Shown: positions 1,958 to 24,022 of the stretch, in pieces | Position numbering within the stretch: position 1 is the first letter of the stretch | Layout: every line of letters starts with the position of its first letter | Source of the DNA: Clostridia bacterium | GTDB taxonomy: Bacteria > Bacillota > Clostridia > UBA1381 | NCBI GenBank assembly: GCA_045538755.1 | Contig: JAZQEC010000002.1 | Location: forward strand, 117,740-181,739 | Length of the DNA: 64,000 bases | Reading direction: 5' to 3' | The notes under the pieces: generated by a model | What the model saw: only the letters and a program-made list of their open reading frames with translations | Told to the model about the DNA's origin: nothing | The model's database searches: none | Made by a program: the position numbers and the translations under genes

Positions 1958-1959
1958 AA

Positions 1960-4854: not shown

Positions 4855-4866
4855 GGGGGTTAAAAT

Positions 4867-5157
4867 ATGAGAATTGTTGAAATTACAGCATTACCAAACG
4901 GCGGACACAGAAATCAAACAGGAACATTTAACAAAATCCCCGAAGGCTTTGCGGTTATTCCTGATGATATGGAAACACCTAATTTCCCCTTTGGCGAGAT
5001 AGCTGTTAAGAAAATCAACGGCGTTATGACTGTTACAGGGTGGACGGCAGGGAAAATTCCCGAAACGCCGGAAACGGCAAAACCGATTACAACAATCGAG
5101 CGGCTTGAAGCTCTTGAAGCAGCAATGCTTGAAATGGCGTTAGGGGGTGCGGAATAA
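4867..5157 (+). CDS. Hypothetical small phage protein
   Basis: 96-aa ORF with GGGGG RBS-like sequence upstream (4855-4859); co-directional in the phage module. Confidence 0.4.
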   Translation: MRIVEITALPNGGHRNQTGTFNKIPEGFAVIPDDMETPNFPFGEIAVKKINGVMTVTGWTAGKIPETPETAKPITTIERLEALEAAMLEMALGGAE

Positions 5158-5270
5158 TGGTAAAATTTTTAGCATTACAAATCAGACAGGGGAAAATCAC
5201 TCTTGAAGATGTCCCCACAAAATGGCGTGAAGCAGTTGAAAAAGAGCTGAACGGCAGCACCGAAGCATAG
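5157..5270 (+). CDS. Small phage protein (XkdX-like size and position)
   Basis: Hand-translated 37-aa ORF MVKFLALQIRQGKITLEDVPTKWREAVEKELNGSTEA. Its ATG overlaps the upstream TAA. Too short for the ORF track. Confidence 0.35.
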   Translation: MVKFLALQIRQGKITLEDVPTKWREAVEKELNGSTEA

Positions 5271-5287
5271 AAAGTCGGTGCGTAGCT

Positions 5288-5692
5288 ATGGTATTTGAAA
5301 AAATAATTGAATTTGTCACAAATCCGGGTGTTATTGTGGGTGCTATTACTCTTATAGAGGTCGCACCTATTAAAATTAACCCGTGGAAATGGCTTTTCAA
5401 GTGGATAGGTGATGCAATTAACGGGGATATGCGAAAAGACCTTTCAGAACTGAAGCGTGATTTTGAGGAAACAAAGGCACAGGATAAACGCTGGCGAATC
5501 CTTGAATTTGCGAGAAGCTGCCGAAACGGTGCAAAGCATACCCGTGAGGAATGGAAACACGCCATTTCAGAGCTTGCGGAATATGAACAGTACACAGAGG
5601 ACAAGCACATAACAAATGGCGTTATGGAAGAAGATGCGAAGTTTTTGCGTGCATTATACCAAGAAAGGCTTACAAAGAATGATTTTTTATAA
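5288..5692 (+). CDS. Hypothetical phage protein with N-terminal hydrophobic segment
   Basis: 134-aa ORF just upstream of the holin. Hydrophobic N-terminus (GVIVGAITLIEVAPI), then a charged helical region. Confidence 0.4.
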   Translation: MVFEKIIEFVTNPGVIVGAITLIEVAPIKINPWKWLFKWIGDAINGDMRKDLSELKRDFEETKAQDKRWRILEFARSCRNGAKHTREEWKHAISELAEYEQYTEDKHITNGVMEEDAKFLRALYQERLTKNDFL

Positions 5693-5705
5693 GGGGGACT
5701 GAAGT

Positions 5706-5909
5706 ATGAAAGACACACACAAGAAATGGATAAAAGCGGCAGGGGTGCGAGCTGTAAAGACAGTAGCACAGACCTTTGTTGCAACAATCGGAACGGCAAC
5801 CGTTTTAGGGGTTGTTGATTGGAAAACGGTTGTTTCTGCTTCTGTATTAGCAGGGGTTTTGTCAGTCGCTACAAGTGTTGCCGGGCTTCCTGAAGTAAAA
5901 GAAAACTAA
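5706..5909 (+). CDS. Phage holin
   Basis: 67 aa with two hydrophobic helices (VAQTFVATIGTATVLGVV and SASVLAGVLSVATSVAGL); immediately upstream of the endolysin; GGGGGA RBS-like sequence (5694-5699). Confidence 0.65.
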   Translation: MKDTHKKWIKAAGVRAVKTVAQTFVATIGTATVLGVVDWKTVVSASVLAGVLSVATSVAGLPEVKEN

Positions 5910-5967
5910 AAGGAAAGGGGCAAGAAATCGCCCTTTTTCTATTTCCTAAAAAAGAGAGGGGAAAATT

Positions 5968-6849
5968 ATGAGTAAATATGCAAGTGAGGTTATCAAAAGA
6001 GCTTCAGAGTGGTTAGGCAGAAAAGAAAGCAACGGAACACACCAGCCCATTATTGACACATACAACAGCTTTGAGCCGTTGGCGAGGGGCTACAAGGTGA
6101 AATATACCGACAGTTGGTGTGCGACCTTTGTTTCCGCTGTTGCAATATCGCTGGGCTATACCGACATTATACCGACAGAATGCAGCTGTCAGAATATGAT
6201 TGAGCTATTTAAAAAGGCTGGTATATGGGTAGAAAACGAAAACAGAACACCAACACCGGGCGAAATTATCTTCTATGATTGGGAGGATGACGGCAACGGC
6301 GATAATAAGGGCTGGTCTGACCATGTCGGAATTGTGGAAAAGGTATCAGGCGGAAAAATAACCGTTATTGAGGGGAATTATAGCAATGCTGTAAAACGCA
6401 GAACGCTTGCCGTGAATGGTTTATGCATTCGTGGCTATGGTGTGCCGAAATATAATGCAGAGAATACCACAGAAACGGCAAGACCGAACGCAGAAGCAAC
6501 GGAAACAGAAAAGACAACAAATTACACTACTGCGGACAAATACACGCTAAAAGCCTTTATAAAGGACATACAGGCAGCAACGGGGGCAAAGGTTGACGGC
6601 ATCGCCGGAGCTGAAACGCTGTCAAAAACAGTTACAGTATCGGCAAAGGTCAACCGCAAGCACGCAGTTGTGAAACCTATTCAAAAACGCCTTAACGCTT
6701 TGGGCTTTAATTGTGGCACGGCTGACGGCATCGCAGGGGCAAAATTCACGGCAGCGGTAAAGAAGTACCAAAGAGCGAATATTTGCGTTTCTGACGGTGA
6801 AATTACGGCACGAAATAGAACTTGGCGTAAGCTTTTAGGTATGGCGTAG
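5968..6849 (+). CDS. Endolysin: CHAP-type amidase/peptidase plus two peptidoglycan-binding repeats
   Basis: N-terminal DSWCATFVS (Cys) and SDHVGIV (His) CHAP-like motifs. C-terminal duplicated VDGIAG...T / ADGIAG...T repeats typical of PG_binding_1. Confidence 0.8.
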   Translation: MSKYASEVIKRASEWLGRKESNGTHQPIIDTYNSFEPLARGYKVKYTDSWCATFVSAVAISLGYTDIIPTECSCQNMIELFKKAGIWVENENRTPTPGEIIFYDWEDDGNGDNKGWSDHVGIVEKVSGGKITVIEGNYSNAVKRRTLAVNGLCIRGYGVPKYNAENTTETARPNAEATETEKTTNYTTADKYTLKAFIKDIQAATGAKVDGIAGAETLSKTVTVSAKVNRKHAVVKPIQKRLNALGFNCGTADGIAGAKFTAAVKKYQRANICVSDGEITARNRTWRKLLGMA

Positions 6850-10040: not shown

Positions 10041-10128
10041 AATCAGGTTGCACATATTTTATGTAAATAATTGAATTTTGTCGCAATATGTGTTAAAATG
10101 TAATCAAGAAGTTATCGGAGGTTTTATT

Positions 10129-11007
10129 ATGGATAATAACGATAAGATACAAATATTTGAAGATAAAAAAATCAGAACTGCATGGAATGAAGAAACTGAA
10201 GAATGGTACTTTTCTGTGGTGGATGTTATATCAGTACTAACTGATCAGGCAACCCCAAGAAGTGCAAGTACATATTGGGCTGTTCTTAAAAAACGTCTTA
10301 AAGATGAGGGTGCCGATGAACTGCTTACAAATTGTAAGCAGTTGAAAATGACTGCAGCAGATGGCAAAAAAAGAATGACCGATGTTGCTGATACTGAACA
10401 ATTGCTCCGCATCATTCAGTCCATTCCTTCTCCAAAGGCAGAACCATTCAAGCTGTGGCTTGCACAGGTTGGAAGGGAAAGAATTGAAGAAACGATTGAT
10501 CCCGAAATTGCTATTGACAGAGCGTTAGAGACCTATCTCAAAAATGGTTATGATGAAGATTGGATTCATCAACGTATACTTTCCATCAGAGTAAGAAATG
10601 AACTTACTGCTGAGTGGCAACAGCGTGGCGTTGAAAAAGGCAAAGAATATGCAATTCTTACTGATGAAATCACAAAGGCATGGTCAGGTATGACAACGAG
10701 AAAATATAAAAATCTCAAAGGTCTCACCAAAGAAAACTTGAGAGATAATATGAGTACAACAGAACTCATACTTAATATGCTTGCAGAAACATCAACCAAA
10801 GATATATCAGAGCAAGAAAAGCCCGATGGGTTTGCAGAGAGTATAAAGGTTGCTCAATCAGGCGGTGAGGTTGCTAAAATCGCAAGAGAAGCCTTGGAGA
10901 AAAGAACCGGAGTTTCTGCAATAACATCAAAAAATGCAACTGAACTTAATCAGGTAGTGACAGATTTAATTGAAGGAATTGCGGAAGATATTGATGATGA
11001 TAAATAG
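10129..11007 (+). CDS. Bro-N domain protein (antirepressor/DinD-like)
   Basis: IQIFEDKKIRTAWNEETEEWYFSVVDVISVLT is a typical Bro-N start; GGAGG RBS before the ATG at 10129. Confidence 0.6.
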   Translation: MDNNDKIQIFEDKKIRTAWNEETEEWYFSVVDVISVLTDQATPRSASTYWAVLKKRLKDEGADELLTNCKQLKMTAADGKKRMTDVADTEQLLRIIQSIPSPKAEPFKLWLAQVGRERIEETIDPEIAIDRALETYLKNGYDEDWIHQRILSIRVRNELTAEWQQRGVEKGKEYAILTDEITKAWSGMTTRKYKNLKGLTKENLRDNMSTTELILNMLAETSTKDISEQEKPDGFAESIKVAQSGGEVAKIAREALEKRTGVSAITSKNATELNQVVTDLIEGIAEDIDDDK

Positions 11008-11024
11008 GCTTAAGGGGATTTTTT

Positions 11025-12572
11025 ATGAGTGCAAATATAACTTTGGGGAAATCAAATTCCACTGTAATTAAAGGGTTTTTAAAAAAGGATGATGCAGAAT
11101 ACCCATTTTTATATACTAATGGAAAATTGGATGTATTTCCTCCTGACTCAAAATCGAAGACATCATTACAATCAGGTTTTTTTGAAGAAATTAATAAACC
11201 TTTCCAAAAGGGAAAAGTTATTCCTCAACTATTTATTGAAGGAGTTACATCTACAGGCCAGAAAATTATATTTGAAACATCAGAACATCATTCTAATAAT
11301 AATGGTTTTTTAACTTATAATATTGATTCAATATACTGCTATGATAAAACCAGTACAAAATACAAACCCAATAATACAGATGATAAAACAAGTATTTCAA
11401 AGCCTGAAGATATAAAATCAGATGCAGATAAAATTGTAAAAAGAATACATAATTGGGATATAGTAACTAATGAAATTGATGGAATGGTTATTTCGGGAGA
11501 ATCTATAGATTTATTTTTCAATCCAGGTTATGCTTTTCAACTTAATAACACATGGAATGAAAATGGTTCATTGGGAGCGTTGTCTATATCTGCTTTACCA
11601 CCTACTGAATATGATTGTGGCTCAATAGAATATGACGGAATAACACTTAATGTAAAGGTAAAAGCTGTTGCTACACAACATACATTTTCTGCGGAACCTT
11701 TTTCTAGTAAAAGTAGTATGATAATAAATTTTTCAAAACCAGTAAGTATTGCAATGGTAAAAGAAGTTAGATTGTCCATAGAACATGTATTGTCATTTCT
11801 CCAAAAAAGACAAAATATCGAATTAAATGAGACGGAGATCTTTTGCACAAATTGTGGATACAAAAGAATTTTCGGATCATTTGTTATTCAAAAAAATGCA
11901 ACTATCCAAGAAATTGATAATAAAAAGAAAAAAAGATTGATTGATTATACCATTATCAAAGATTGTTTTTCCAATCTAGTCTTATTGAGTTTGCAAAACA
12001 AATTGTATTACGAAAACATCCCGAAATGTACTGCTGACTGGAATGTTTACGGACCAGATAGAATCATTTTTAATTTTGCCGCTTTTGATCGTATTAGCGA
12101 ATTATATTATTCTGAGACGATGCGTTCTCAGGATTTTTATGATGTGAGATCTTTATTCTTTGAAATATCAAAAGAACTTCAAATAAAATTTGGAGGCAAA
12201 AAGAAAAAAGCAGCTAAAGAGATAGGAAAACGGATATTGGGATTGGAGAGTAGTTTACAAGATAGATTTGTTAAAATAATTAAAGAACACATTGGTTGTA
12301 TAGATGTGTTTATGGAACTAAACTATGGTAAAACATGGCGTACAAAAATACCATCGATTGGCTCCAGATTGAATACTATTCGCAATGATATTGCACATGG
12401 TCATATGGATTTGCATTACGATGATAATACGATATTAGATTTTGAAACTCTAGAGATATTATTATATGCAATTTGGTTAAGAAAGGCTGATCTTTGCGAT
12501 TATAACATAAAAATTGCAATTGAACAATTGTTTCATTTAGGGGTGCTTATAGAAGACAAAAACAACGAATAA
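11025..12572 (+). CDS. HEPN-motif protein, ApeA-like single-protein defence candidate
   Basis: C-terminal R-x4-H motif in SRLNTIRNDIAHGH. Large N-terminal domain of unknown function. Starts 17 nt after the Bro-N gene. Confidence 0.5.
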   Translation: MSANITLGKSNSTVIKGFLKKDDAEYPFLYTNGKLDVFPPDSKSKTSLQSGFFEEINKPFQKGKVIPQLFIEGVTSTGQKIIFETSEHHSNNNGFLTYNIDSIYCYDKTSTKYKPNNTDDKTSISKPEDIKSDADKIVKRIHNWDIVTNEIDGMVISGESIDLFFNPGYAFQLNNTWNENGSLGALSISALPPTEYDCGSIEYDGITLNVKVKAVATQHTFSAEPFSSKSSMIINFSKPVSIAMVKEVRLSIEHVLSFLQKRQNIELNETEIFCTNCGYKRIFGSFVIQKNATIQEIDNKKKKRLIDYTIIKDCFSNLVLLSLQNKLYYENIPKCTADWNVYGPDRIIFNFAAFDRISELYYSETMRSQDFYDVRSLFFEISKELQIKFGGKKKKAAKEIGKRILGLESSLQDRFVKIIKEHIGCIDVFMELNYGKTWRTKIPSIGSRLNTIRNDIAHGHMDLHYDDNTILDFETLEILLYAIWLRKADLCDYNIKIAIEQLFHLGVLIEDKNNE

Positions 12573-12701
12573 CTTATTACATTTAAAAGTCTGGATTAGT
12601 AGTTTTTAAACAAGAATAAGCCTATGTTTTAAAGCATGGGCTTTTTCTGTACACAAAATTTGGTCTTCATAAACCAAAGAAAAGAATTTTGAAAACCTTC
12701 G

Positions 12702-12730
12702 TGGACTTCCGCTCTCTTCTGTGGTATGCT
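12702..12730 (+). promoter_or_regulatory. Promoter-like element, copy A (TGGACT-17-TGgTATGCT)
   Basis: Part of a 36-nt block (12696-12731) that is 30/36 identical to 26345-26380. Followed by an RBS, a 17-codon ORF (12755-12808) and a hairpin. Confidence 0.35.
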
Positions 12731-12902
12731 TTGTCTCGCAGGAGGTGAAAAAATATGACAAGGCATACAAATGACTTAAGGCGATTGTTAATTCCTTTTA
12801 TGAATTAGCAATCGCCTTTTGAAATTAATACACTGAAACATTGACAACTCTTATATATTTTATCATTGGTGGTAAAATAAAATAAAAAGGAGTTGTTGAA
12901 AC

Positions 12903-13748
12903 ATGAATGAAATTACTAAACGCACTATTGAAGACTACAAGAATTATTTAATCGAGGAAGAAAAAAGTTCCGTCACCATAGAAAAATATATTCGTGACAT
13001 AAATGCATTCGTGCAGTGGTCGGACGGCAGAGCAATGACAAAGATACTTGTGCTTGAATACAAAAACATATTAGTACAGCAATATGCTCCTGCAAGTGTG
13101 AATTCGGTTTTATCTTCTCTCAACGGATACTTTAATTACATTGAAAGATACGATCTGAGGGTCAAGAACTTAAAAGTGCAAAGACAAATCTTCTGTCAGA
13201 GTGAAAAGGAACTGACCAAAGCAGAATACGAAAGACTTCTCAAAGCTGCAAAGAATAAAAAGAATGAGCGCCTCTACCTCATTATGCAAACGATATGTGC
13301 CACAGGAATCCGTGTGAGTGAACTGAAATACATCGATGTAAATTCTGTTATGACAGGTCAGGCTCAGGTTAGGTTGAAAGGCAAAATTCGAATAATAATA
13401 CTTCCAAAGGAACTGTGCCAACTACTGAAAAAATATATAAAGGAAAGGCATATCACATCAGGCAGTGTATTCGTAACGAGAAAAGGTCAACCTGTGGACA
13501 GGCACTCAATATGGAAATCGATGAAACAGTTGTGCGAGACCGCCGGAGTGTCAAAAGAAAAAGTGTTCCCACATAACCTCCGCCACCTGTTCGCACGAAC
13601 CTACTATTCGCTACAAAAAGATATCGTTCGCCTGGCGGATATACTTGGTCACTCAAGCGTAAATACTACCAGAATCTATACCATAGAAAATGGTTCTACC
13701 CACCGCAGGCAAATGCAAAGAATGGGACTTGTACGGATGCAAAATTAA
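12903..13748 (+). CDS. Tyrosine site-specific recombinase (XerC/XerD-like)
   Basis: ATGIRVSEL (Arg), HNLRHLFARTY (H-x-x-R) and LGHSSVNTTRIYT (His and Tyr) catalytic motifs; N-terminal SAM-like domain. Confidence 0.85.
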   Translation: MNEITKRTIEDYKNYLIEEEKSSVTIEKYIRDINAFVQWSDGRAMTKILVLEYKNILVQQYAPASVNSVLSSLNGYFNYIERYDLRVKNLKVQRQIFCQSEKELTKAEYERLLKAAKNKKNERLYLIMQTICATGIRVSELKYIDVNSVMTGQAQVRLKGKIRIIILPKELCQLLKKYIKERHITSGSVFVTRKGQPVDRHSIWKSMKQLCETAGVSKEKVFPHNLRHLFARTYYSLQKDIVRLADILGHSSVNTTRIYTIENGSTHRRQMQRMGLVRMQN

Positions 13749-13753
13749 AAAAC

Positions 13754-13773
13754 CACATAATCAGCATTATGTG
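13754..13773. repeat. Inverted repeat, left copy (cacataatcagcattatgtg)
   Basis: Perfect 20-bp reverse complement of 13984-14003. Each copy has 8-bp palindromic arms around an asymmetric 4-nt centre (cagc versus gctg). Begins 6 nt after the recombinase stop. Confidence 0.75.
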
Positions 13774-13799
13774 GCAAAATAATTAAAATATTTGAATAA

Positions 13800-13828
13800 A
13801 TTATACCACAAAAATACATAAAGGTCAA
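13800..13828 (-). promoter_or_regulatory. Near-consensus sigma-A promoter inside the IR-bounded segment, currently pointing away from the downstream genes
   Basis: Minus strand reads TTGACC, a 17-nt spacer, then TGgTATAAT (extended -10). Confidence 0.6.
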
Positions 13829-13983
13829 TGTTTCAGAGATAAATAGAACGAATTTATAAAATTTGCACACGGCAAATAGACCAATGAAAAAAATCGAACT
13901 CATTGGTCTGAGGCTCTTTTGAATTCGTGGTAACTGCAATCACCTGAGAGGGTGATTTTTTTGTTTCAGCCGTCTTAGTTACA

Positions 13984-14003
13984 CACATAATGCTGATTAT
14001 GTG
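13984..14003. repeat. Inverted repeat, right copy (cacataatgctgattatgtg)
   Basis: Perfect reverse complement of 13754-13773; lies 25 nt upstream of the ATG at 14028. Confidence 0.75.
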
Positions 14004-14027
14004 AGCTAATGGGAGTTGAGTAGAAAT

Positions 14028-14549
14028 ATGCCCGACATAGATAAAGAAAAATCTTGCTGCTTCTTCGGTCACAGAAAGATTACTGAAACAGAAGAATTAA
14101 AAAATAACCTATGCAGAATTATAGAAAATTTAATTGTAAATGAAAAAGTTGATACCTTCCTATTCGGGAGCAAAAGCGAATTTGACAGTTTGTGCCTTAA
14201 AACAGTAACCGAGTTGCGAGAAAAATATCCTCGCATCAAGCGGATATACGTCAGGTCAGCATTTCAACATATTCCCGACTGGTATGAGGATAGTCTGCTT
14301 AAACATTATGAAGGTACATACTTCCCTGAACATATGGAAAACGCAGGCAGAGCATCTTATGTGGAACGCAATCAGGAAATGATTAACCACAGTAAATTCT
14401 GCGTGGTTTATTACGATGAAAACTATCTTCCTCCAAGACGTAGAAACAGCAGACGGGATTTGTTTGACTACCAACCCAGAAGTGGCACAAAGCTTGCTTA
14501 TGAATATGCTGAAAGAAAAAACAGAAGTATTATTAATCTTTTGAGTTGA
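14028..14549 (+). CDS. SLOG-superfamily protein (DUF1273/YpsA-like)
   Basis: N-terminal CCFFGHRKI motif, then an alternating beta/alpha pattern and about 175 aa, typical of DUF1273. Confidence 0.5.
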   Translation: MPDIDKEKSCCFFGHRKITETEELKNNLCRIIENLIVNEKVDTFLFGSKSEFDSLCLKTVTELREKYPRIKRIYVRSAFQHIPDWYEDSLLKHYEGTYFPEHMENAGRASYVERNQEMINHSKFCVVYYDENYLPPRRRNSRRDLFDYQPRSGTKLAYEYAERKNRSIINLLS

Positions 14550-14638
14550 GACATTTTTGAAATATGTCTCTAAAGTTCTTGTATAATATACATTATGCAT
14601 AAAATTTGTCTAAATATAAAGAAAAATGGTGAAACACA

Positions 14639-14668
14639 TTGACAAATCTAACACCAATATGGTAAAAT
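14639..14668 (+). promoter_or_regulatory. Sigma-A-type promoter upstream of the XRE gene
   Basis: TTGACA, an 18-nt spacer, then TGgTAAAAT. Confidence 0.5.
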
Positions 14669-14723
14669 AATGTAAATTATGAATTCATTTAGTTGGTTAC
14701 TCTACGAAAAGAGGTTTGTAATA

Positions 14724-15269
14724 ATGGAAGAGATATCAAGATTTTTTCTAACTGAAGAAGAAAAGAATGAATTTATCGAAGCATTGACACCGGAATTAGC
14801 ACTGCTCCGGGCAAAAGCAGAAATATCACAAGAAGAAATAGCAAATTTAATAGGAGTTTCAAGACAAACGTATGGTTCGATAGAGAGAAAGGCGAGAAAA
14901 ATGTCATGGAATACTTACCTATCTCTTATTCTTTTTTATGATTATAATAAAAAAACGCACAAGATGATTCGAAACATCTCAGCTTTTCCGCATGAGTTAA
15001 TTAAACGTTTTAACGAAGGTGAAGAACCGGTTGACTTTGAGTTAAACATGTTATTTAAGGCGGATACAAAGAACATTATTGATTCGTTAGATGAACAGGC
15101 TATCTCCACACTAAAGACCATTTTAATGGTAGAATATTCTCGTTGTAATAATATTTCTGGTGAAGCGGTTGTTAAGTTCTTTGAGGGTGTTGATTTTACA
15201 AAGAGAGAAATTTCAGAAAAACAAGAAGATACAGCACAAGCATTAAAGAACATTAAAAGGAACAATTAG
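14724..15269 (+). CDS. XRE-family HTH transcriptional regulator
   Basis: ISQEEIANLIGVSRQTYGSIERKARKMSWNTYLSL HTH_3-type motif; AGAGG RBS before the ATG at 14724. Confidence 0.75.
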   Translation: MEEISRFFLTEEEKNEFIEALTPELALLRAKAEISQEEIANLIGVSRQTYGSIERKARKMSWNTYLSLILFYDYNKKTHKMIRNISAFPHELIKRFNEGEEPVDFELNMLFKADTKNIIDSLDEQAISTLKTILMVEYSRCNNISGEAVVKFFEGVDFTKREISEKQEDTAQALKNIKRNN

Positions 15270-15272
15270 AAT

Positions 15273-15950
15273 ATGAGCAAAGCTATTAAGAAAATTACAA
15301 ACCAATTTATAAAACAACATTCAATATCAGTTGTAAATTATTCTACTTTAAGAGACGTGGCAAAAAGAATTGGTTATACAATTATAGAATTCAATAACAT
15401 TTTTAATGATAAAGATGTTGAAACGGTTATACAGAATTTACGACTCAGTGAAGCGGTGTCTCAATCAAGAGGATTTACATATGTAAGTAAAGATTATCGC
15501 CTTATTTTTATAAATGAGGATTTAAGCGATGATGAAAAGACTTTGGTTCTCTCGCATGAACTTGGGCATATTGTTTGCGAACATTTTACAACCACTCCTA
15601 TCATAGGCAAGGATGTCAAAGAGGAATATGAAGCAAATGAATTTTCTCATTATTTATTAAATCAAAACTCTTTGCGTAATTTAAAACTTACGATTACAAA
15701 ACATAAAAAGAAAGTAGCAGTAGTTGCACTGTCTTTTGTTGCCATATTGGTTACGATTGTCACTGTTATCACTATTAATCAAGAACAATCGTATTACGAC
15801 AATTGTTATATCACATCGACAGGAAATAAATACCATAAAAAAGATTGTATTTTTGTCAAGGATAAAACAACTGTAAAACGGTTGACTAAAGAAGAATATG
15901 ATGCCGGCAAATATGAAGCGTGCGACATGTGCTTGCCTGACAAAGAATAA
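15273..15950 (+). CDS. ImmA/IrrE-family zinc metallopeptidase with a TM helix and a C-terminal His/Cys cluster
   Basis: HELGHIVCEH HEXXH motif. TM helix VAVVALSFVAILVTIVTVITI. C-terminal YHKKDC...CDMC. Starts 4 nt after the XRE stop, the classic ImmR/ImmA pairing. Confidence 0.7.
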   Translation: MSKAIKKITNQFIKQHSISVVNYSTLRDVAKRIGYTIIEFNNIFNDKDVETVIQNLRLSEAVSQSRGFTYVSKDYRLIFINEDLSDDEKTLVLSHELGHIVCEHFTTTPIIGKDVKEEYEANEFSHYLLNQNSLRNLKLTITKHKKKVAVVALSFVAILVTIVTVITINQEQSYYDNCYITSTGNKYHKKDCIFVKDKTTVKRLTKEEYDAGKYEACDMCLPDKE

Positions 15951-15982
15951 ACATCTGCATTATGAGGAGAAAGGAAATTATT

Positions 15983-16852
15983 ATGGATAACGAAAAGAAA
16001 GTTATGTCTGCAACAGAAAACATAGAAAGCTCGGAGAATGTAGTTTTAGAAACACCAAATGCAACAGAAGAATCATGTTCCGTTGAATCAAATAGTGAAG
16101 AAAGAAGATGCCCAAACTGTGAAGCACTGATTATTGAAGAGAAATCTTTCTGCACGGAATGTGGTACTTCACTAAAAAGTGCCTGCGCAAAGTGTGGTAC
16201 AGAGTTGCAACCTGGACAACTTTTCTGTCCAGAATGCGGTAACCAAATAACTGAAAGCAACTGCGATGGGAATATAGCACAATATAATAAAGAAATTGCT
16301 GATAAGCAGAGAAAGAAAGGTAAACACAAAAAACTTAAAATCGTTCTAAGTGTAATTTTAGCAGTTTTGGTCGTAGTCGGTGGTTATTTTGGTTATATCT
16401 ATCATTTGAGACAACAAGTTTTAGGATATGCAATAGAAACAGAAAAATATATTGAAGCTATAAATGATACCAAAAGCGATCTCTCGGCTGCTAACGAAGC
16501 CTGGAATATAGTAAACAACGGTGGTTCTTGGCTTTACTATGGAACATTAAAATCTTATGCTAGATCGATGTTTTCAACTAACATTTCAAATGCAAAAACT
16601 GCAAATTCAAAAATAGTAGACCTCTATAATGATATAAAAGAATTTGAAATGGATGATTCATATGTTGATGATATAAAAGCAAAAGCACAAGAAGTGCAAG
16701 ATGTTTATTTGAGCGTGTATGATTCTGTAATTGTCAACGAAAGCGGCTATAGCAGTTCGAGTCTTTCAAATTTATCTACTAAGATTTCAGAACTCCAAAA
16801 AATTGTAGAAAATGTTAAAGATGCGTATGGTAACGCAAATGTGAAAAAATAA
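15983..16852 (+). CDS. Double zinc-ribbon / single-pass TM protein with helical extracytoplasmic domain
   Basis: CPNC-x10-FCTECG and CAKCG-x9-FCPECG, Lys-rich stop-transfer KQRKKGKHKK, TM helix IVLSVILAVLVVVGGYFGYIY. Confidence 0.6.
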   Translation: MDNEKKVMSATENIESSENVVLETPNATEESCSVESNSEERRCPNCEALIIEEKSFCTECGTSLKSACAKCGTELQPGQLFCPECGNQITESNCDGNIAQYNKEIADKQRKKGKHKKLKIVLSVILAVLVVVGGYFGYIYHLRQQVLGYAIETEKYIEAINDTKSDLSAANEAWNIVNNGGSWLYYGTLKSYARSMFSTNISNAKTANSKIVDLYNDIKEFEMDDSYVDDIKAKAQEVQDVYLSVYDSVIVNESGYSSSSLSNLSTKISELQKIVENVKDAYGNANVKK

Positions 16853-16887
16853 ACCGCATAGCGGTATATAGAAAGGAACTTTATATT

Positions 16888-17574
16888 ATGGAAAACGAAA
16901 ACAAAGTTATGCAGGAAGCAACAGTAACCGAAGCGGTTGAAAACGAAGCAAAGCAGCCTACAACAGAAAACAGATGCCCAAATTGTCAGGCTCTGCTTGG
17001 TGAAGGTCAAACCTTCTGTCCCGAGTGTGGAACTCCGCTTAAAAAACTTTGTCAGAAATGTGGTGCAGAACTGCAGAATGGACAGGTGTTTTGCGCAAAG
17101 TGTGGTCAAAAGACGGATGGAACCGTTGTGTTGGATGCTAGCCAAGCCATCAATCAGTTTAATACAAATATGGTAGCTCAACAAAAGAAAAACAAACTTA
17201 TTCCAGTTATTATTGGCGGAGTTTGCGTAGCTATTGCCATTCTACTTTTTGCTAGCGGAACAATCGGCGGTGGAGTGAATTTTGAAAAGAAATTTGCAGA
17301 TATAGCAGATGAATCATGGTGTGACATAGCATCTGATGGAAGTTATATGAAGTTAGATACAAATCCATATGATATTGAGGATAGCTTTGAAAGAGATGCA
17401 TGGAATGCAATTGAAGATACCAATGCAGAATTAGGCTTTTCAGAAGCGTTATTTAGTAAAATGGGTGAAACGCGGTCTATGGATGGAAGACAGTCAGACG
17501 AAAACGATAAATATAAAGTGACTTGGACATATCACCCGGATAAAGGTCTTGAAGTTATGTATGAGAAGAAATAA
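16888..17574 (+). CDS. Double zinc-ribbon / single-pass TM protein (paralog of the previous gene in its N-terminal module)
   Basis: CPNC-x10-FCPECG and CQKCG-x9-FCAKCG; TM helix LIPVIIGGVCVAIAILLFA. The N-terminus MENENKVMQ parallels MDNEKKVMS. Confidence 0.6.
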   Translation: MENENKVMQEATVTEAVENEAKQPTTENRCPNCQALLGEGQTFCPECGTPLKKLCQKCGAELQNGQVFCAKCGQKTDGTVVLDASQAINQFNTNMVAQQKKNKLIPVIIGGVCVAIAILLFASGTIGGGVNFEKKFADIADESWCDIASDGSYMKLDTNPYDIEDSFERDAWNAIEDTNAELGFSEALFSKMGETRSMDGRQSDENDKYKVTWTYHPDKGLEVMYEKK

Positions 17575-17608
17575 ATAACAACAAAAAATTTGACAAGGAG
17601 AATATATC

Positions 17609-18214
17609 ATGGGAAAATTAAATGTAATTATTGTTGACGCAACAGGAAACAAGGAGCAAAAGGTTGGATTACCTGATGATGTAAAAATCGGTATCATTAT
17701 GGTTAAGCTTGTTGAAAAAATCAAATTGCCTTCAACAGGTCCTGATGGTAATCCTATCAGCTATAAATTCATACATAAAGTTTCCGGAAGACAGCTTTTG
17801 GAAACACAGACTTTAGCAGATGCTCATATCAAAGATGGAGATGTATTAAGGCTTCAACCCGAAATTACTGCAGGCGCAGTTTGCACAAAGTGCGGTAAAA
17901 CTATGCAAGATGGAGTTGCTTTTTGCACAGATTGCGGACAGCCGATGAATATTGTACAGCAACCAAATTTTGTTCAACCCAATTATGGAGTATATCAGGT
18001 TAACACAATCAACAAATCTACCCCTGTTAAGGTGTTGGGAATTATTTCGTCGGTAATACATTTTTTGGCGACATTTATATTTTTAATGGTAGCTTTCGAT
18101 TGTTATGATTTTGAATATGCAGCACCATATCTTATGTTTGCGTTTTTCTTTTGTGCCCAGGGGTTTTTAACTTTAGCAATGACTATTTATATGTCAAACA
18201 GAATTAAAAAGTAA
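17609..18214 (+). CDS. Ubiquitin-like beta-grasp domain fused to a zinc ribbon and two TM helices (tethered Ubl precursor)
   Basis: Residues 1-89 have a beta-grasp-like pattern ending GDVLRLQPEITAG (compare ubiquitin LVLRLRGG). Then CTKCG-x9-FCTDCG and two hydrophobic helices. Confidence 0.6.
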   Translation: MGKLNVIIVDATGNKEQKVGLPDDVKIGIIMVKLVEKIKLPSTGPDGNPISYKFIHKVSGRQLLETQTLADAHIKDGDVLRLQPEITAGAVCTKCGKTMQDGVAFCTDCGQPMNIVQQPNFVQPNYGVYQVNTINKSTPVKVLGIISSVIHFLATFIFLMVAFDCYDFEYAAPYLMFAFFFCAQGFLTLAMTIYMSNRIKK

Positions 18215-18224
18215 GGTGAATATT

Positions 18225-19412
18225 ATGTCGACGGAATTAGAATTAAATAAAGAGGATTTTGAAGAAACCAGATATTCACGATTAGAACTTATTCCCTGGT
18301 GGAATCAAGAACTTCTACACAATTCAACAGTAATGGTTGTAGGTGCCGGTGCCATCGGCAATGAACTTATCAAAAACCTTGCCTTGCTTGGTGTGGGCAA
18401 AATCGTTATTGTTGATATGGATAAGATTGAGCAAACAAACCTTACTCGTTCTATTCTTTATAGAATGAAAGATGTTGGCAAATATAAATCCCAGGCCGCA
18501 GCAGAAGCTGCTATGGAGATTAATCCTGATGTTAAAGCAATATGCCTCAATCAGAATATTGTTACAGATATTGGTCTTGGTGTATTTCGCAGTATGGATA
18601 TTGTTCTCGGTGGTCTTGATAACCGTGAAGCAAGACTTGCAATTAACCAGTCATGTTATAAGGTAAACAAGCCCTGGATTGATGGTGCTATTGAGGTTTT
18701 AAACGGTTTTGCTAGAGTGTTTGTTCCGCCCGGTCCGTGTTATGAATGCACAATGACCGAAACAGACTGGAAACTCATCAATAAACGTAAATCCTGTGCA
18801 CTTTTAACGCATGATGAGATGTTAGAAGGCAAAACGCCTACTACACCTACTTCATCATCAATTATTGCAGGTGTTCAGGTTCAAGAAATGCTGAAGATTT
18901 TGCACAATGACAGAAATCTTCCTACGCTTGCCGGCAAAGGGTATGTGTTCAATGGACTTACCCATGATTCTTTTGTCGTAGAGTACCAGCTTAAAGATGA
19001 TTGTATGAGCCATGATTTGTATGACAATATAAGGGAAATGGATTGGTCTGCTCGTGAAGTGTCTGTAAAAGATGTTTTAAATCAGGCAGCAAAAGACCTT
19101 GGTGATGGTGCAATCATTGAATTTGATCGTGATATTGCTACAACTGCAACCTGTGTTTGTGGAGATACAAAAGACATTTTCAATACTGTGAACCGTCTTC
19201 GTGGCAAAGATATTGTTTGCGAAAAATGTGGTAAATCTATGCAATTTGAAACTATACACACAATTAATGGTGAAGAAGATTTTCTTGATAAAAAATTATA
19301 TGAAATCGGTATACCTTTGTATCATATCATTGCAGTGAGGAAAGGTATGAAATATGTTTATTATGAATTATCAAAAGATAAAAACGAAGTGTTAGGAGGT
19401 CTGTTTGAATGA
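18225..19412 (+). CDS. E1-like adenylating enzyme (ThiF/MoeB/UBA family)
   Basis: VMVVGAGAIGNE Gly-loop, DxD at IVDMDKIEQTNLTRS, GGLDNREAR, and two Cys pairs (CYEC, and CVCG...CEKCG). Its stop overlaps the E2 start (ATGA). Confidence 0.8.
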   Translation: MSTELELNKEDFEETRYSRLELIPWWNQELLHNSTVMVVGAGAIGNELIKNLALLGVGKIVIVDMDKIEQTNLTRSILYRMKDVGKYKSQAAAEAAMEINPDVKAICLNQNIVTDIGLGVFRSMDIVLGGLDNREARLAINQSCYKVNKPWIDGAIEVLNGFARVFVPPGPCYECTMTETDWKLINKRKSCALLTHDEMLEGKTPTTPTSSSIIAGVQVQEMLKILHNDRNLPTLAGKGYVFNGLTHDSFVVEYQLKDDCMSHDLYDNIREMDWSAREVSVKDVLNQAAKDLGDGAIIEFDRDIATTATCVCGDTKDIFNTVNRLRGKDIVCEKCGKSMQFETIHTINGEEDFLDKKLYEIGIPLYHIIAVRKGMKYVYYELSKDKNEVLGGLFE

Positions 19413-21334
19413 ATGCAAGAATGAGGAGAATTGCCTCCGACTATGAACAGATTAAGAAGAATTTTTCGAATCATAAGAATATTGTAGTAGAACCAATTGG
19501 TGAAGAACCTGCCGAAAAGTACAGAGTTACATATTATGTAAATGGTATATACCTTTTAGAAGACGGCAGGATCGAAACTCTTGGTAAACACATCGTAATT
19601 ATTACATTACATGCTGAATATCCGAGATATAAGCCGATATGTACTATTGCTACACCTATCTGGCATCCTAATTTTAGAGATGGACAGATTTGTATAGGTG
19701 ATATCTGGGGAGCTGGAGAATCACTCTGCGATATTATTGTAAACATCGGTGATATGATTCAATATAAATCCTGGAACTCCTTTAGTCCTCTTTCTGCTGA
19801 TGCTGCCGAGTGGGCTATTGCAAACAAACACCTATTCCCTGTTGGTAATGTTAATTTGTGGACCGGCGAGGAAGAAGACGGCACAGTAAAAAAAGAGTTT
19901 GATATTGATCTTTTTGATGAAGATGAAGAAACATCATCAACTGAAACTATTCCGGAAGTGGTAGAATCCGCTCCTGTACAGGAAGAAATGCCGGTTGTTT
20001 CAGCAGAAACAACTGTTGAACAAGTTCCTGTAGCTACTGCTATATTGGAAAATGAAGATGAGAATGACTTTGAAATTACTGCTGAAGAATTAGAAGGAAT
20101 TGAATTTGTTCCGACTGCAGTAAGAATGCAAGGCAGCCAATATGGAGCAACTGCAAAAGGTGGCAAAGTTAACTTTAAAACTGTATTAGTCAAAGGCTTA
20201 TTATGGGCTTTAATAGGCGCATTTATTGGCTTTGGTGTTTCAGAAGTTTCTGATGGTTTAACTGGTAATGCCTCCGTTGCAAGAATGTTAGGACATCCTG
20301 AAATTGCTGAATATTATGAATATACAGAGCAAGCAAATGATGTTTTAGCCCCTGTAGATGCAGCATTTGAAAAATACTGCAAAGAACAAGGAATAGATCC
20401 TGAATCAGAAAACGCTTTAACAAATTGGTTGACGAACAATACTTCTAAGTATTCAAGTACTGTCGAAAAATATTTGGAATACAATGAAAAAGCCGAAAAT
20501 GCATTGTATGAAGCCTATGAAAATGATTTTAATTCTAACGAAGACAAACTTGGCGAAGCGATGGAAGGAATATCAAGAACTCATACTGCATTGTGGTCCG
20601 CATTAATCGCTTTATTCATCGGTCTTTTCCTTGGTCTTGGAGAAGGCATATACTATGGTTCAAAGGAAAATGCAATTAAATATGCTTTAATTGGTGCCGG
20701 TATATCAATAGTTGTTGGTGCTGTAAGCGGATATCTTGCACAGTGGATGTATGCTTCGATGTTGACCGATTATTCGTCTGACTTTACCAAAGCTCTCGTA
20801 AGAGGTTTGGGTTGGGCAATAATGGGTATTGGTATAGGCTTATCCGTAGGTCTTATCAAATCTGAACAAAAGAGAATAATTTTCTGTTCTCTCGGTGGTG
20901 TTATTGGTGCATTTATAGGAGGATTCCTATTTAACTATGTATGTGATATCATTCCAAATGACATTGTTGCACGCGGATTTGCAATAGTTATTATGGGCCT
21001 TTTGATCGGTGTTGGCGTAGGTGTACTTGAACAGTTTGCAAAAGCTGCTTGGCTCAAAGTTATAAGAGGTGAATTTGAAGGTAAAGAATATCTTGTATTT
21101 GAAGGTACAACAAGTATTGGTAATAGTGGAAAGAACACTATTGTATTGTTCAAAGATAAACTTGTTGCACCAAATCATTGCGATATTGTTCAAGAAGGTA
21201 GCAAATATGTCCTGGTAGATAAAGGCTCACCAATGGGTACTGTTGTTAATGGTATGCGTGTGACTCGCCATGTTTTAAAACAGGGTGATGCAGTTGCTAT
21301 CGGTAACTCTGTACTAGTATTTAACACGAAATAA
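19409..21334 (+). CDS. UBC-type E2 fused to about six Gly-rich TM helices and a C-terminal FHA domain
   Basis: YPRYKPICTIATPIWHPNFRDGQICIGDIW (H86-P87-N88, Cys95). Hydrophobic GxxxG-rich segments between about residues 258 and 545. C-terminal IGNSGKNTIVL...VVNGMRV...GDAVAIGNSVLVF is FHA-like. Confidence 0.75.
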   Translation: MNARMRRIASDYEQIKKNFSNHKNIVVEPIGEEPAEKYRVTYYVNGIYLLEDGRIETLGKHIVIITLHAEYPRYKPICTIATPIWHPNFRDGQICIGDIWGAGESLCDIIVNIGDMIQYKSWNSFSPLSADAAEWAIANKHLFPVGNVNLWTGEEEDGTVKKEFDIDLFDEDEETSSTETIPEVVESAPVQEEMPVVSAETTVEQVPVATAILENEDENDFEITAEELEGIEFVPTAVRMQGSQYGATAKGGKVNFKTVLVKGLLWALIGAFIGFGVSEVSDGLTGNASVARMLGHPEIAEYYEYTEQANDVLAPVDAAFEKYCKEQGIDPESENALTNWLTNNTSKYSSTVEKYLEYNEKAENALYEAYENDFNSNEDKLGEAMEGISRTHTALWSALIALFIGLFLGLGEGIYYGSKENAIKYALIGAGISIVVGAVSGYLAQWMYASMLTDYSSDFTKALVRGLGWAIMGIGIGLSVGLIKSEQKRIIFCSLGGVIGAFIGGFLFNYVCDIIPNDIVARGFAIVIMGLLIGVGVGVLEQFAKAAWLKVIRGEFEGKEYLVFEGTTSIGNSGKNTIVLFKDKLVAPNHCDIVQEGSKYVLVDKGSPMGTVVNGMRVTRHVLKQGDAVAIGNSVLVFNTK

Positions 21335-21345
21335 TATAGAAGGAG

Positions 21346-22200
21346 ATGAGTGGTATGAAATATAGAATTATCAGCATAGCGATTGTGTTCATACTGCTTA
21401 TCTCTTTTTCTGCATATGCAATTAACTTTACACCTGAAGAGACATATAATTCGGTGGTTGTTGTATATACAGATACAGGGGTTGGCAGTGGTTTTTCTAT
21501 TAAAGAAAATATAATAATAACAAACGCACATGTTGTGGGATACAGTAAAAAAGTTGCAGTTAATTTATACGATGGAACGACAATTAAAGGCAACGTTATA
21601 AAAACTGATATTGAAAAAGATTTGGCGTTGATTGAGGTTGATAAAACAATTACACCATTAAGTATAAATTCAAACAATTTAAGTATAGGTCAGGAAGTAT
21701 ATGCAATAGGCGCACCAAAAGATATGCCTTACACCATGACCAAAGGAATCATATCAGCACTTGACAGAAAACTTGGACAAAACACCTACATACAAATAGA
21801 TGCATCTGTAAATTCCGGAAACAGTGGCGGTCCGCTTGTTGATGACAATGGAAATGTGATTGGAATCATTACTCTAAAAGCATCTGATGCGGAAGGAATT
21901 GGCTTTGCAATTAACACAAAAGATATCAATAATTTTATTGAAGGTGTAGAAGTCCCTGAGCAACAAGTTTCTTCTGAAACCGAAAATGGAGAAAAAGATA
22001 TATTGCCAAACGAAAATAATGCTGAAACAAATGAAATGCAAAAGACTCTTATGGCAGAAAACGATGGATTAAAAATAGCACTGTGTATGTCTGTTATTTT
22101 TAATATTATATTAGGATTGTTATACCTTCACATATTGTTTAAAAAACGTTCCAAGAAAGAAAAAGACGAGTTTGATTTTGAAATTGAAATTGAGGAGTAG
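21346..22200 (+). CDS. Trypsin-like (S1/HtrA-type) serine protease, exported, with C-terminal TM anchor
   Basis: Signal-like MKYRIISIAIVFILLISFSAYA. Triad motifs TNAHVV, DLALIEV and GNSGGPLV. C-terminal helix LKIALCMSVIFNIILGLLYLHILF. The start may be the ATG at 21355. Confidence 0.8.
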   Translation: MSGMKYRIISIAIVFILLISFSAYAINFTPEETYNSVVVVYTDTGVGSGFSIKENIIITNAHVVGYSKKVAVNLYDGTTIKGNVIKTDIEKDLALIEVDKTITPLSINSNNLSIGQEVYAIGAPKDMPYTMTKGIISALDRKLGQNTYIQIDASVNSGNSGGPLVDDNGNVIGIITLKASDAEGIGFAINTKDINNFIEGVEVPEQQVSSETENGEKDILPNENNAETNEMQKTLMAENDGLKIALCMSVIFNIILGLLYLHILFKKRSKKEKDEFDFEIEIEE

Positions 22201-22205
22201 CGATT

Positions 22206-23177
22206 ATGAAGAAGAAAAAAACTAAGGCAAGGGTTTCTCATAAAAATATTACACCCGATTTGCCACAAAATATAGTTCCTGTAGGAGAAAGAGTTTTTGA
22301 TGATAAAAACATTTATATTCATCAAAAAGTTTATGCACAAATACATAAATTTGCTGCCAATAAAACAGAAAATGAGCATGGTGGAATCTTGGTTGGCAGA
22401 ATTCTAAATGAAATGGGTAAAGAAAATACAATTATAGAAGGCTTTATTGAAGCGAAATACAATGCAGCTACGCCTACTACTTTAACATTCACCCACGAAA
22501 CATGGGATTATTTCCATTCTGAAATGGATAGAAAGTATAAGGATAAAAAAATTGTGGGATGGATTCATACTCATCCTAATTTTGGAATATTCTTGTCTGA
22601 AAATGACCGATTTATACAACAAAATTTCTTCACTGATGCTAATCAGGTAGCCTATGTAGTCGATCCAATTCAAAATGATGAAGGCTTCTTCTTTTGGGTG
22701 AATGAAAAATTAGAACGTTGCCCTGGTTTTTACTTGTTTGATAAAAACGGAGTTAAAATAAAACAAAAGGCATGGTCAACTGATCCGGATGAACTTAATG
22801 AAGATGTAATTGTAAAACATAGTAAGATACATCCTATTCTTACAATTGCACTTGTTCTTGTTATACTTGTAAATCTTTTTGTGATAATGCAACAATCTAG
22901 GAGAATAGACACGCTTGAAAGGCAGGTTGAGGATCAGGAATTGGTACTTCGGTATGGTGTTCTTGGCATTTATGGTAATCCTGAAATATCGGATGTTGCT
23001 GATAATATAAGACAGCAAATAGAAGCACAGGAAAAATCTAAAAAACAAGCGATTCAGGATGCTATGAAACAACAAAAAGAACAACAAGCGACAGAGGCGA
23101 ACGAACAAGAACAAAAAGAAGAAAAAAATACTGAAGAAAATGAAACAAACACAGAGAATAACGGAGGTACAGAATAA
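22206..23177 (+). CDS. JAB/MPN (JAMM) metallopeptidase with TM helix and E/Q/K-rich tail
   Basis: ENEHGGILVG (Glu) and HTHPNFGIFLSEND (H-x-H-x7-S-x2-D); TM helix IHPILTIALVLVILVNLFVIM. Confidence 0.8.
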   Translation: MKKKKTKARVSHKNITPDLPQNIVPVGERVFDDKNIYIHQKVYAQIHKFAANKTENEHGGILVGRILNEMGKENTIIEGFIEAKYNAATPTTLTFTHETWDYFHSEMDRKYKDKKIVGWIHTHPNFGIFLSENDRFIQQNFFTDANQVAYVVDPIQNDEGFFFWVNEKLERCPGFYLFDKNGVKIKQKAWSTDPDELNEDVIVKHSKIHPILTIALVLVILVNLFVIMQQSRRIDTLERQVEDQELVLRYGVLGIYGNPEISDVADNIRQQIEAQEKSKKQAIQDAMKQQKEQQATEANEQEQKEEKNTEENETNTENNGGTE

Positions 23178-24022
23178 TGGATTTTATAGGTAAAATTTGT
23201 CCCTATTGCAAAACTGAATTTAAAGAAGGCGATGATGTCGTTGTATGTAGCGTTTGCGAAATGCCACATCACAAAGAATGTTGGATAGAAAATAAAGCAT
23301 GTACTACATTTGGATGCACAGGCACAATTGTTGGTGCAGAGCAATATGCAGAAGCTGTAGATAATAAGACATTCTGTTCTAAATGTGGAGCGCCTTTAAG
23401 TGAAGGGCAAAAATTCTGTGCTTCATGCGGAACACCAGCAGGAGCAACAGGTGAACCACATTTTCAGGTTGCTGGAGCATATGCGGCAAACCAAAGTTAT
23501 CAGCAAAATACATATACTGCGCCTCAGCCACAGTACACACCTCAATATTCTGCTCCGCAGTATAATGCTGGTTATAATCCTTATGGTCAACAACAGGTCG
23601 ATCAGGATTTATATACATTTATACAGTCTAATCAGCCATTCTATATATCAAAGTTCCAAAAAATGCAGATGAGTAACAGTAAAACATCATGGAATTGGTG
23701 TAGCTTTTTATTCAGTGCATATTGGTTGGCATATAGAAAAATGTATGGTATAGCAGCGGCATATGCCGGAATCTCCTTCGTATTAGGGTTGATTCCTGGT
23801 CTTGGTTCTATTTTAGGATTAGCAATGTCTATCTGTGCTGGTATATTTGGAAATCATTTTTATAAACAATATATAGACGGAGAATTACAGGTAGCTAAGA
23901 GTATGGATGCGATGAATAAAACCGCCTATATAGCCAAGAAAGGTGGAACAAGCGCAGGTGCAGTTTGGGTTGTTATAGGAATAATGACTGTTCTTGGAAT
24001 GATAATAGGCAGTAGCATGTAA
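23177..24022 (+). CDS. Prok-RING-like C4HC3 finger + zinc ribbon + Q/Y/P-rich linker + DUF2628-like TM domain (E3 candidate)
   Basis: C8-x2-C11-x12-C24-x2-C27-x4-H32-x2-C35-x6-C42-x4-C47 in ICPYCKTEFKEGDDVVVCSVCEMPHHKECWIENKACTTFGC. Then FCSKCG-x9-FCASCG, and WNWCSFLFSAYWLAYRKMY. Confidence 0.6.
   Translation: MDFIGKICPYCKTEFKEGDDVVVCSVCEMPHHKECWIENKACTTFGCTGTIVGAEQYAEAVDNKTFCSKCGAPLSEGQKFCASCGTPAGATGEPHFQVAGAYAANQSYQQNTYTAPQPQYTPQYSAPQYNAGYNPYGQQQVDQDLYTFIQSNQPFYISKFQKMQMSNSKTSWNWCSFLFSAYWLAYRKMYGIAAAYAGISFVLGLIPGLGSILGLAMSICAGIFGNHFYKQYIDGELQVAKSMDAMNKTAYIAKKGGTSAGAVWVVIGIMTVLGMIIGSSM

Follow-up and report, generated by a model that had tools for sequence, protein, structure and literature searches.

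Results

Genes and features at the locus

The window (the whole stretch of 64,000 nucleotides that was analysed, 64 kb) carries the gene of a tyrosine recombinase, a pair of inverted repeats enclosing a short segment and a gene of the SLOG/YpsA family, which follow one another in that order (Table 1). The left repeat (IRL) is the 20-mer CACATAATCAGCATTATGTG as read on the plus strand and the right repeat (IRR) is its exact reverse complement, with a total span of 250 bp from IRL to IRR. A search for further copies of the 20-mer, allowing up to three mismatches, returned none in the 64-kb window and none in 100 dinucleotide-preserving shuffles; the perfect repeat pair is far beyond chance. The arms of each copy are palindromic and 8 bp long (CACATAAT and ATTATGTG) and the centre is asymmetric, CAGC in IRL and GCTG in IRR. 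With arms of this symmetry, only the four central bases make the two copies inverted and not direct repeats. The core site may also be parsed as arms of 7-8 bp around a 6-bp centre (TCAGCA), which we take to be the layout of Xer/dif sites. The stop codon of the recombinase gene occupies 13746-13748 and IRL starts at the sixth nucleotide after it, five nucleotides lying between the two. The first-pass annotation, made from the letters of this DNA alone, had described perfect 20-bp inverted repeats, 8-bp palindromic arms around an asymmetric 4-nt centre (cagc versus gctg) and a left copy beginning 6 nt past the recombinase stop, and all of this proved exact, the coordinates of both repeats included.

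Table 1. Features of the switch locus, with positions counted from the first nucleotide of the window
Feature	Position	Strand	Remarks
Xer-like tyrosine recombinase gene, 281 aa, presumed invertase	12903..13748	+	PF00589 and N-terminal SAM-like domain
U-tract (A-run on the plus strand, overlaps the stop codon)	13741..13751	-	Terminator scan, folding; predicted to make the IRL hairpin an intrinsic terminator
IRL, recombinase core site CACATAAT-CAGC-ATTATGTG	13754..13773	+	Inversion boundary in relatives
Invertible segment, 210 bp	13774..13983		Reverse complement in L012 versus L011; flipped relative to SLOG in L082
Sigma-70-type promoter TTGACC-17-TGgTATAAT	13800..13828	-	11/12 match plus extended -10; aims at the recombinase gene (OFF)
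Conserved palindrome/hairpin AGACCAATGA-N12-TCATTGGTCT	13878..13909		Folding -13.2 kcal/mol; conserved arms
Intrinsic terminator, hairpin and T7	13938..13964	+	Predicted to block recombinase to SLOG read-through at present
IRR, same core site inverted, GCTG centre on the plus strand	13984..14003	-	No U-tract after it
RBS (GGGAG, 14011-14015) and SLOG/YpsA-family gene, ATG 14028	14011..14549	+	PF06908; gene directly under the switch

The recombinase ORF is complete and matches PF00589 with an E-value of about 1e-31 to 8e-31. Its best NCBIfam models are XerA (142 bits against a cut-off of 220), XerD (132 against 330) and XerC (118 against 335), and the FimB/FimE-type invertase models NF007370 and NF007371 gave 41.3 and 29.7 bits against cut-offs of 221 and 222; at the level of sequence the protein is Xer-like, yet it falls outside both the FimB/E and the XerC/D families. 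Aligned to XerD, the protein shows the catalytic motifs ATGIRVSEL, KGK, HNLRH and LGHSS..TRIY at the active site, with the R-K-HxxR-H-Y set intact. The protein has thousands of homologues, many of them at 88-94% identity. By exact-protein look-up and the contig index there is no exact match on record to the recombinase or the SLOG protein of the window, the annotated plasmid and phage collections held nothing close (the sole matches, two weak ones to the recombinase gene, came from Subdoligranulum records), and a protein scan of viral contigs gave a single weak and irrelevant match. Upstream of the recombinase gene a 16-codon ORF (ATG 12756) overlaps a 10-bp hairpin (12788-12819) within a conserved leader (12756-12819) that may be regulatory; an Rfam match of this leader to a miRNA was sub-threshold and was discarded as spurious.

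Predicted promoter and terminators in the two orientations

The near-consensus promoter which had been read on the minus strand of the segment was recovered in a promoter scan of 12600-14800, in which it (13828-13800) was among the two best sites. The first-pass annotation further held that this promoter fires antisense into the recombinase gene. This now appears unlikely, as a predicted terminator intervenes: read from the minus strand, IRL folds into a hairpin of 10 bp (-12.5 kcal/mol) with U6AAUUUU (UUUUUUAAUUUU) directly after it, as found by the terminator scan and by folding, and the hairpin and U-tract should stop a transcript from about 13793 after about 50 nt. The plus-strand hairpin and T7, put earlier at about 13938-13962, was also returned by the terminator scan, which extends it by two nucleotides (Table 1). 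Between this internal terminator and the SLOG start codon the promoter scan gave no plus-strand promoter in the present orientation. The orientation of the window would thus be OFF for the SLOG gene by two routes, since the promoter aims away from it into a terminator and read-through is blocked at 13938-13964.

When the segment was inverted in silico the -35 hexamer came to lie at 13929-13934 and the -10 hexamer at 13952-13957, in agreement with the earlier expectation that inversion would bring the promoter to about 13929-13957, reading into the SLOG gene. In this flipped state the same hairpin is predicted to form at IRR, where it is followed by AGCUAAUGGGAG, a stretch that includes the SLOG ribosome-binding site and has no U-tract; on folding, the combination of hairpin and U-tract was found on the IRL side only. 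The palindrome at 13878-13909 could be an insulating terminator or a site for an accessory protein. Rfam gave no match within the invertible segment and only sub-threshold chance matches nearby, so that a reading of the segment as a small-RNA gene is unsupported.

Inversion and other products in related loci

A scan of public collections with the 20-mer yielded 25 metagenome and 60 genome stretches. The carriers are nearly all gut or rumen Clostridia, belonging to the Oscillospiraceae, Acutalibacteraceae, Ruminococcaceae, Monoglobaceae and Lachnospiraceae; the hosts of the loci are Clostridia MAGs, and one isolate, Faecalicatena contorta (locus L073), is among the carriers. In almost all of these loci a recombinase, 46-100% identical, ends within a few dozen nucleotides of one repeat, and across the approximately 110 related loci (numbered L below and sorted into classes, with the window in class A) a recombinase of the same family adjoins the repeat pair in nearly all, L082 having none.

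Both orientations were found between identical flanks. In class A, L012 and L011 encode one and the same recombinase (P0024, 88% identical to that of the window) and have the same 20-mers, a segment 88.6% identical to the window's and an MBL-fold lipoprotein as cargo. The 209-nt interior of L012 (ENA ERZ27248370) is the exact reverse complement of that of L011, the flanks being identical over 1500 of 1500 positions to the left and 2744 of 2745 to the right, and the promoter of L012 aims through IRR at the ribosome-binding site of the cargo gene. The window's orientation is that of eight of the nine listed P0024 loci and of nine further contigs with the same gene calls. Class B has the same 20-mer together with recombinases of about 52% identity, an unrelated segment of 270-273 nt and an HD-domain protein as cargo; its promoter, TTGCCA-17-TGtTAAAAT, aims at the cargo in six loci, and in L102 the segment is inverted, with one mismatch to the reverse complement of that in L034 (272 nt). 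Inversions bounded by the 20-mers are therefore seen in two independent classes and in assemblies from different projects. An assembly artefact seems unlikely because the 20-bp repeat is shorter than the smallest k-mer of the assemblers, so that reads spanning the junctions must presumably exist.

The switch of the SLOG type also appears to have been in the other state at least once, as the class A segment of L082 (7176-7425, reverse strand) is flipped relative to SLOG; this locus is a decayed relic with a decayed -35 and a truncated SLOG gene. The comparison of orientation in related genomes, proposed earlier as a check on the switch, thus returned both states in the pairs L012/L011 and L102/L034 and, in addition, in L082. 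A different product is found in L047 (860-1010), a precise IRL x IRR deletion in which the recombinase stop is followed by one hybrid site and the SLOG ribosome-binding site, as would be expected if the two repeats recombined in the other alignment. Nine contigs (L019, L052, L059, L064, L066, L089, L099, L120 and L122) end at or inside the switch; so many breaks would be explained by mixed orientations, as assemblers break at regions with two configurations. The recombinase genes of L046, L057 and L098 are decayed. Two or three modules with an identical 20-mer occur per genome in JAZNGA01 (L067, L071), JAZNWH01 (L049, L076), JAZOOD01 (L059, L075), JAZRIR01 (L047, L093) and CANRNF01 (L069, L087, L103), and recombination between modules, with large rearrangements, is conceivable in such genomes.

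The two orientations are far from equally represented. Among 57 class A loci the promoter points toward the recombinase in 55 and toward the cargo in one (L012), and has been lost in one (L095). In four other classes of the SLOG type it points toward the recombinase in 34 of 34 loci, whilst class B mostly shows the opposite orientation, with the promoter toward the cargo. Judged against these relatives, the window is in the predominant, predicted OFF orientation, which is the normal resting state. As only one of the 56 scorable class A loci is both intact and flipped, switching to ON must be rare, or the ON state counter-selected. This finding should be read with the cargo in mind: the sole intact flipped class A locus has MBL-fold and not SLOG cargo, and the sole flipped locus of the SLOG type is the relic L082. 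It is possible that the OFF bias arises from convergent transcription, with the recombinase mRNA meeting a strong promoter, by analogy with the orientational control of fimE.

Covariation of the centres and conservation of the segment

More distant members of the family were fetched through their proteins and not through the 20-mer. In these the palindromic arms are kept and the centre is altered, always in both copies together: across five further classes it is CAGC, CAAC or CTGC, in step in the two repeats. The CAGC/GCTG (IRL/IRR) of the window and class A is replaced by CAAC/GTTG in classes P0118 and P0091 (recombinases both 69% identical) and by CTGC/GCAG in classes P0066 (72%) and P0075 (70%). 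Tyrosine recombinases require identical overlap regions in the two partner sites, and covariation of the centres is therefore what is predicted of crossover sites, whereas an operator or a plain hairpin has no need of it. In the P0091 loci L126-L135 (for example L126, 2001-4592) the recombinase, the CAAC/GTTG switch and SLOG are followed by a second recombinase of the same family, which has its own site with the centre CGAT. The IRR of these loci lies inside a longer hairpin with a T-run, and since that hairpin is made of one inner and one outer flank the terminator would exist in the OFF orientation only.

Forty different class A switches were aligned; all 9 positions of the extended -10 and 5 of the 6 positions of the -35 are invariant. 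The palindrome at 13878-13909 has arms invariant at 19 of 20 positions around a loop invariant at 3 of 12, and the terminator at 13938-13964 has stems invariant at 11 of 16 and a loop at 1 of 4. Within the segment, conservation in this alignment is highest at the promoter hexamers, with the hairpin arms and terminator stems also conserved; the invariance of IRL is partly circular, as the loci were fetched with the exact 20-mer. The classes whose recombinases are 69-72% identical keep an equivalent promoter (TTGACC or TTGACT, a 17-nt spacer and TATAAT, mostly with TG) as well as the GACCAATG..CATTGGTC core of the palindrome, and the A-run before IRL is conserved in all classes.

Mobile-element context and cargo

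The usual order of the backbone is an HTH_36/DnaD-like gene, a MobL relaxase gene, an ORF of about 120 aa, the recombinase gene, the switch, SLOG and variable cargo. In the window an additional 2.6 kb (10043-12690) separates the small ORF from the recombinase module; most relatives lack this insert, and in them the relaxase gene and the 122-aa ORF directly abut the module. The insert encodes a Bro-N protein (10078-11007) and a protein of 515 aa that weakly matches HEPN_MAE_28990 (11025-12572). In some loci the module lies beside housekeeping genes with no relaxase. Within the window no other recombinase gene was found in the element, and a search of the 64 kb for a third core site, as a possible att site, gave matches at chance level only. 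Where loci differ in cargo, homology stops 0-9 nt outside IRR (window 14003-14012 against L011, L020, L038, L081, L086, L091 and L100; L115 against L116), a pattern that hints at exchange of cargo by recombination at this very site. Prophage tail and lysis genes, among them those of a Sipho_Gp37-like protein and a CHAP endolysin with a PG-binding domain, occupy the left end of the window (8-6849), and a tRNA-Leu gene on the minus strand (29401-29484) may lie close to where the mobilisable element ends on the right.

A cargo gene starts 5-36 nt after every IRR (5-24 nt in class A), and the ribosome-binding site of the window's SLOG gene lies 12 nt before its ATG. In class A the first cargo gene is usually of the SLOG/YpsA family, of which there are two types, and less often an MBL-fold lipoprotein; the cargo of other classes comprises an HD-domain protein, treble-clef zinc-finger repeat proteins, a helicase and a surface protein. 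Homology between the window and its SLOG-type relatives ends at the SLOG stop (about 14520-14555), and the genes beyond differ. In the window an operon at 14679-26283 follows, with genes for an XRE regulator, an ImmA-like M78 peptidase, two double-zinc-ribbon proteins, a YukD-type ubiquitin-like protein fused to a zinc ribbon, a ThiF E1, an E2 (UQ_con) fused to FHA, a trypsin-like protease, two JAB deubiquitinases (one with LysM), a prokaryotic RING protein and a DUF5780 protein. The predicted domains make up a ubiquitination set of eukaryote-like type, located on a mobilisable element; L093 carries the same operon at about 88-91% identity. The gap between SLOG and XRE contains a 7-bp hairpin with no U-tract (fold z-score -1.5), and the XRE gene has a strong predicted promoter of its own, TTGACA-18-TAAAAT, at 14639-14668; control of the XRE/ImmA/ubiquitin-like operon by the switch is possible. 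PADLOC gave weak matches in the operon, to the E1 and JAB parts only, and none for the SLOG or the 515-aa protein, so that naming the cargo as a known defence system is not justified.

Discussion

The locus is a real feature and a further case of a well-known class of switch. It is very probably a phase-variation switch (inverton), the 210-bp segment of which is flipped by the adjacent recombinase via IRL and IRR. The recombinase encoded at 12903-13748 would recombine IRL with IRR and so flip the segment. In the OFF state the promoter would aim to the left and yield only a transcript of about 50 nt, stopped by the IRL hairpin and U-tract, and the internal plus-strand terminator would halt read-through from the recombinase gene, leaving SLOG without a promoter. 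In the ON state the promoter, now at about 13929-13957, would read through the IRR hairpin, which has no U-tract, into the ribosome-binding site and start codon of SLOG. The original proposal of an invertible promoter, flipped by its neighbouring recombinase and captured OFF, is upheld by flipped relatives with identical flanks, by the covarying centres and by the conserved promoter hexamers. We infer that promoter and terminators behave as the sequence predicts and that the copy in the window still flips; the adjacent recombinase is presumably the catalyst, given its association with the repeats across about 110 loci and the covarying centres, but a trans-acting recombinase may take its place.

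Other explanations have to be set against this model. The recombinase could be mainly the integrase or resolvase of a mobilisable element, its sites serving integration, cargo capture or multimer resolution and inversion being a side effect. The element shows no second recombinase gene, homology ends 0-9 nt outside IRR wherever the cargo differs, L047 demonstrates that deletion is also supported by the sites, and the protein is Xer-like with a site that is presumably dif-like, all of which would suit such a role. We nonetheless consider it quite unlikely, because the 64-kb window has no third site above chance, because the module still has its inverted pair and promoter where it lies away from relaxase genes and beside housekeeping genes, and because every class preserves the inverted repeats, the promoter between them and the U-tract on one side as a single unit. 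It is highly improbable that the palindromes are only operators or ordinary terminator hairpins, with no inversion taking place and the flipped contigs being artefacts of assembly: exact inversions bounded by the 20-mer occur in two independent classes and in assemblies of different projects, the repeat length relative to the assemblers' k-mers implies junction-spanning reads, L047 is a precise deletion product, and neither operators nor hairpins need asymmetric centres that co-vary as reverse complements. These observations outweigh the facts that each copy is a near-perfect palindrome, as would be expected for a dimeric regulator, that IRL resembles a terminator and that one orientation prevails in almost all assemblies.

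That same prevalence (55 of the 56 class A loci that could be scored, together with all 34 from four further classes, have the promoter toward the recombinase) could mean that the common orientation is the functional one, with a short RNA or antisense or convergent transcription repressing the recombinase, and SLOG not the main target; the promoter and the recombinase mRNA would be expected to converge over 13745-13962. As a replacement for the inverton this is rather unlikely, since the conserved terminator directly after IRL would limit antisense transcription, since a cargo gene begins no more than 5-36 nt past each IRR and since the majority orientation of class B aims at the cargo. It is compatible with the inverton model as an extra layer, by analogy with the fimE type of orientational control.

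Several described systems bear comparison with the window. The survey of hCom2, a defined gut community (PMC11892184, Microbiome 2025), brought together 33 invertons from 17 strains as inverton group 139 (invertase group 35), all with a Clostridia host, a tyrosine-type recombinase gene within 5 kb and a previously unpublished repeat motif. The group is strongly associated with a group of tyrosine recombinases, and reads in both orientations and shifts over passages were reported for it; Clostridium sp. D5 (3525576-3525832) has 25-bp repeats with a 206-bp interior and Intestinimonas butyriciproducens DSM 26588 (1750639-1750893) has 13-bp repeats with a 228-bp interior. The window likewise has a Clostridia host and a tyrosine recombinase less than 5 kb away, and spans 250 bp as against 254-256 bp in these two examples. 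The window's family is probably group 139, a match made on host, recombinase and dimensions and not on the motif. The exact 20-mer has no match in the searchable literature text, in which the group 139 motif is given only as a figure, and the description of the group in PMC11892184 has no promoter, terminator logic, centre covariation or cargo.

The fimS element of Escherichia coli, inverted by FimB/FimE, is also a short invertible segment with a sigma-70 promoter between inverted repeats, adjoined by tyrosine recombinase genes and switching downstream genes ON and OFF. However, FimB and FimE are of about 200 aa and of a different subfamily from the 281-aa recombinase of the window, and fimS is chromosomal, not part of a mobile module, with repeats of 9 bp that fall short of complete palindromic core sites. 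In this system the orientation of the switch is known to govern the recombinase as well (fimE). Mycoplasma Xer1 (vpma), Mbr, HvsR and the mpl system of M. penetrans resemble the window in their adjacent Xer-like tyrosine recombinase and site-specific inversions, the likeness to Xer1 being one of description and not of compared sequence. Disruption of xer1 locks the phase (PMC2268961), and a passage of the same paper that cites Horino 2003 has the mpl genes switched by adjacent invertible promoters. At vpma one fixed promoter meets alternative genes, whereas in the window a small promoter cassette flips, and the mycoplasma systems differ in hosts, sites and cargo (surface lipoproteins).

In Clostridioides difficile, likewise a Clostridia host, the RecV switches (cwpV, flgB, pdcB) have invertible segments of 150-200 bp upstream of the regulated genes and a tyrosine recombinase (PMC2784873 and PMC9286219). 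RecV is a single distant recombinase acting on many sites, whereas that of the window adjoins its own pair, and the RecV repeats are imperfect and not palindromic, whereas those of the window are both perfect and palindromic. The cwpV and flgB switches act after initiation, through formation of a terminator, and do not move the promoter. The Xer/dif system is the nearest by recombinase sequence (XerA/XerD/XerC), and the core site presumably has CATAA-N6-TTATGT in common with the dif sites of E. coli and Bacillus subtilis. A dif site is, however, a single site at the replication terminus which serves resolution, and the window has two inverted sites beside a gene on a mobilisable element, arranged for inversion.

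A wider reading, which we offer only tentatively and hold to be less probable than not, is that the recombinase gene, both sites and the promoter segment make up a self-contained and portable phase-variation cassette of about 1.3 kb (about 12690-14008), which would spread between mobilisable elements and chromosomal loci of gut Clostridia and would acquire new cargo by site-specific exchange exactly at IRR, the 4-nt centres acting as 'barcodes' against cross-recombination (as in the CAAC/CGAT tandem). Here it would have brought SLOG, and possibly the ubiquitin-like conjugation operon, under stochastic control.

Among gut bacteria, phase-variable promoters rank with the main sources of heterogeneity, but those of Clostridia are barely characterised. 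The present family of switches is found on mobilisable elements across many families of gut Clostridia, with one site common to recombinases that are only 46-100% identical. Its architecture is clean, in that a full palindromic core site would double as an orientation-specific terminator and the crossover centres co-vary; as a compact and probably self-sufficient switch it might find use as a genetic tool. Of some interest are the portability, the dual-use site, the covarying centres, the strong OFF bias and the place of the switch ahead of SLOG and an unusual ubiquitin-like operon. For the bacteria that carry it, the switch points to SLOG proteins, and perhaps to the ubiquitin-like operon behind them, as costly functions that may be expressed in only a minority of cells.
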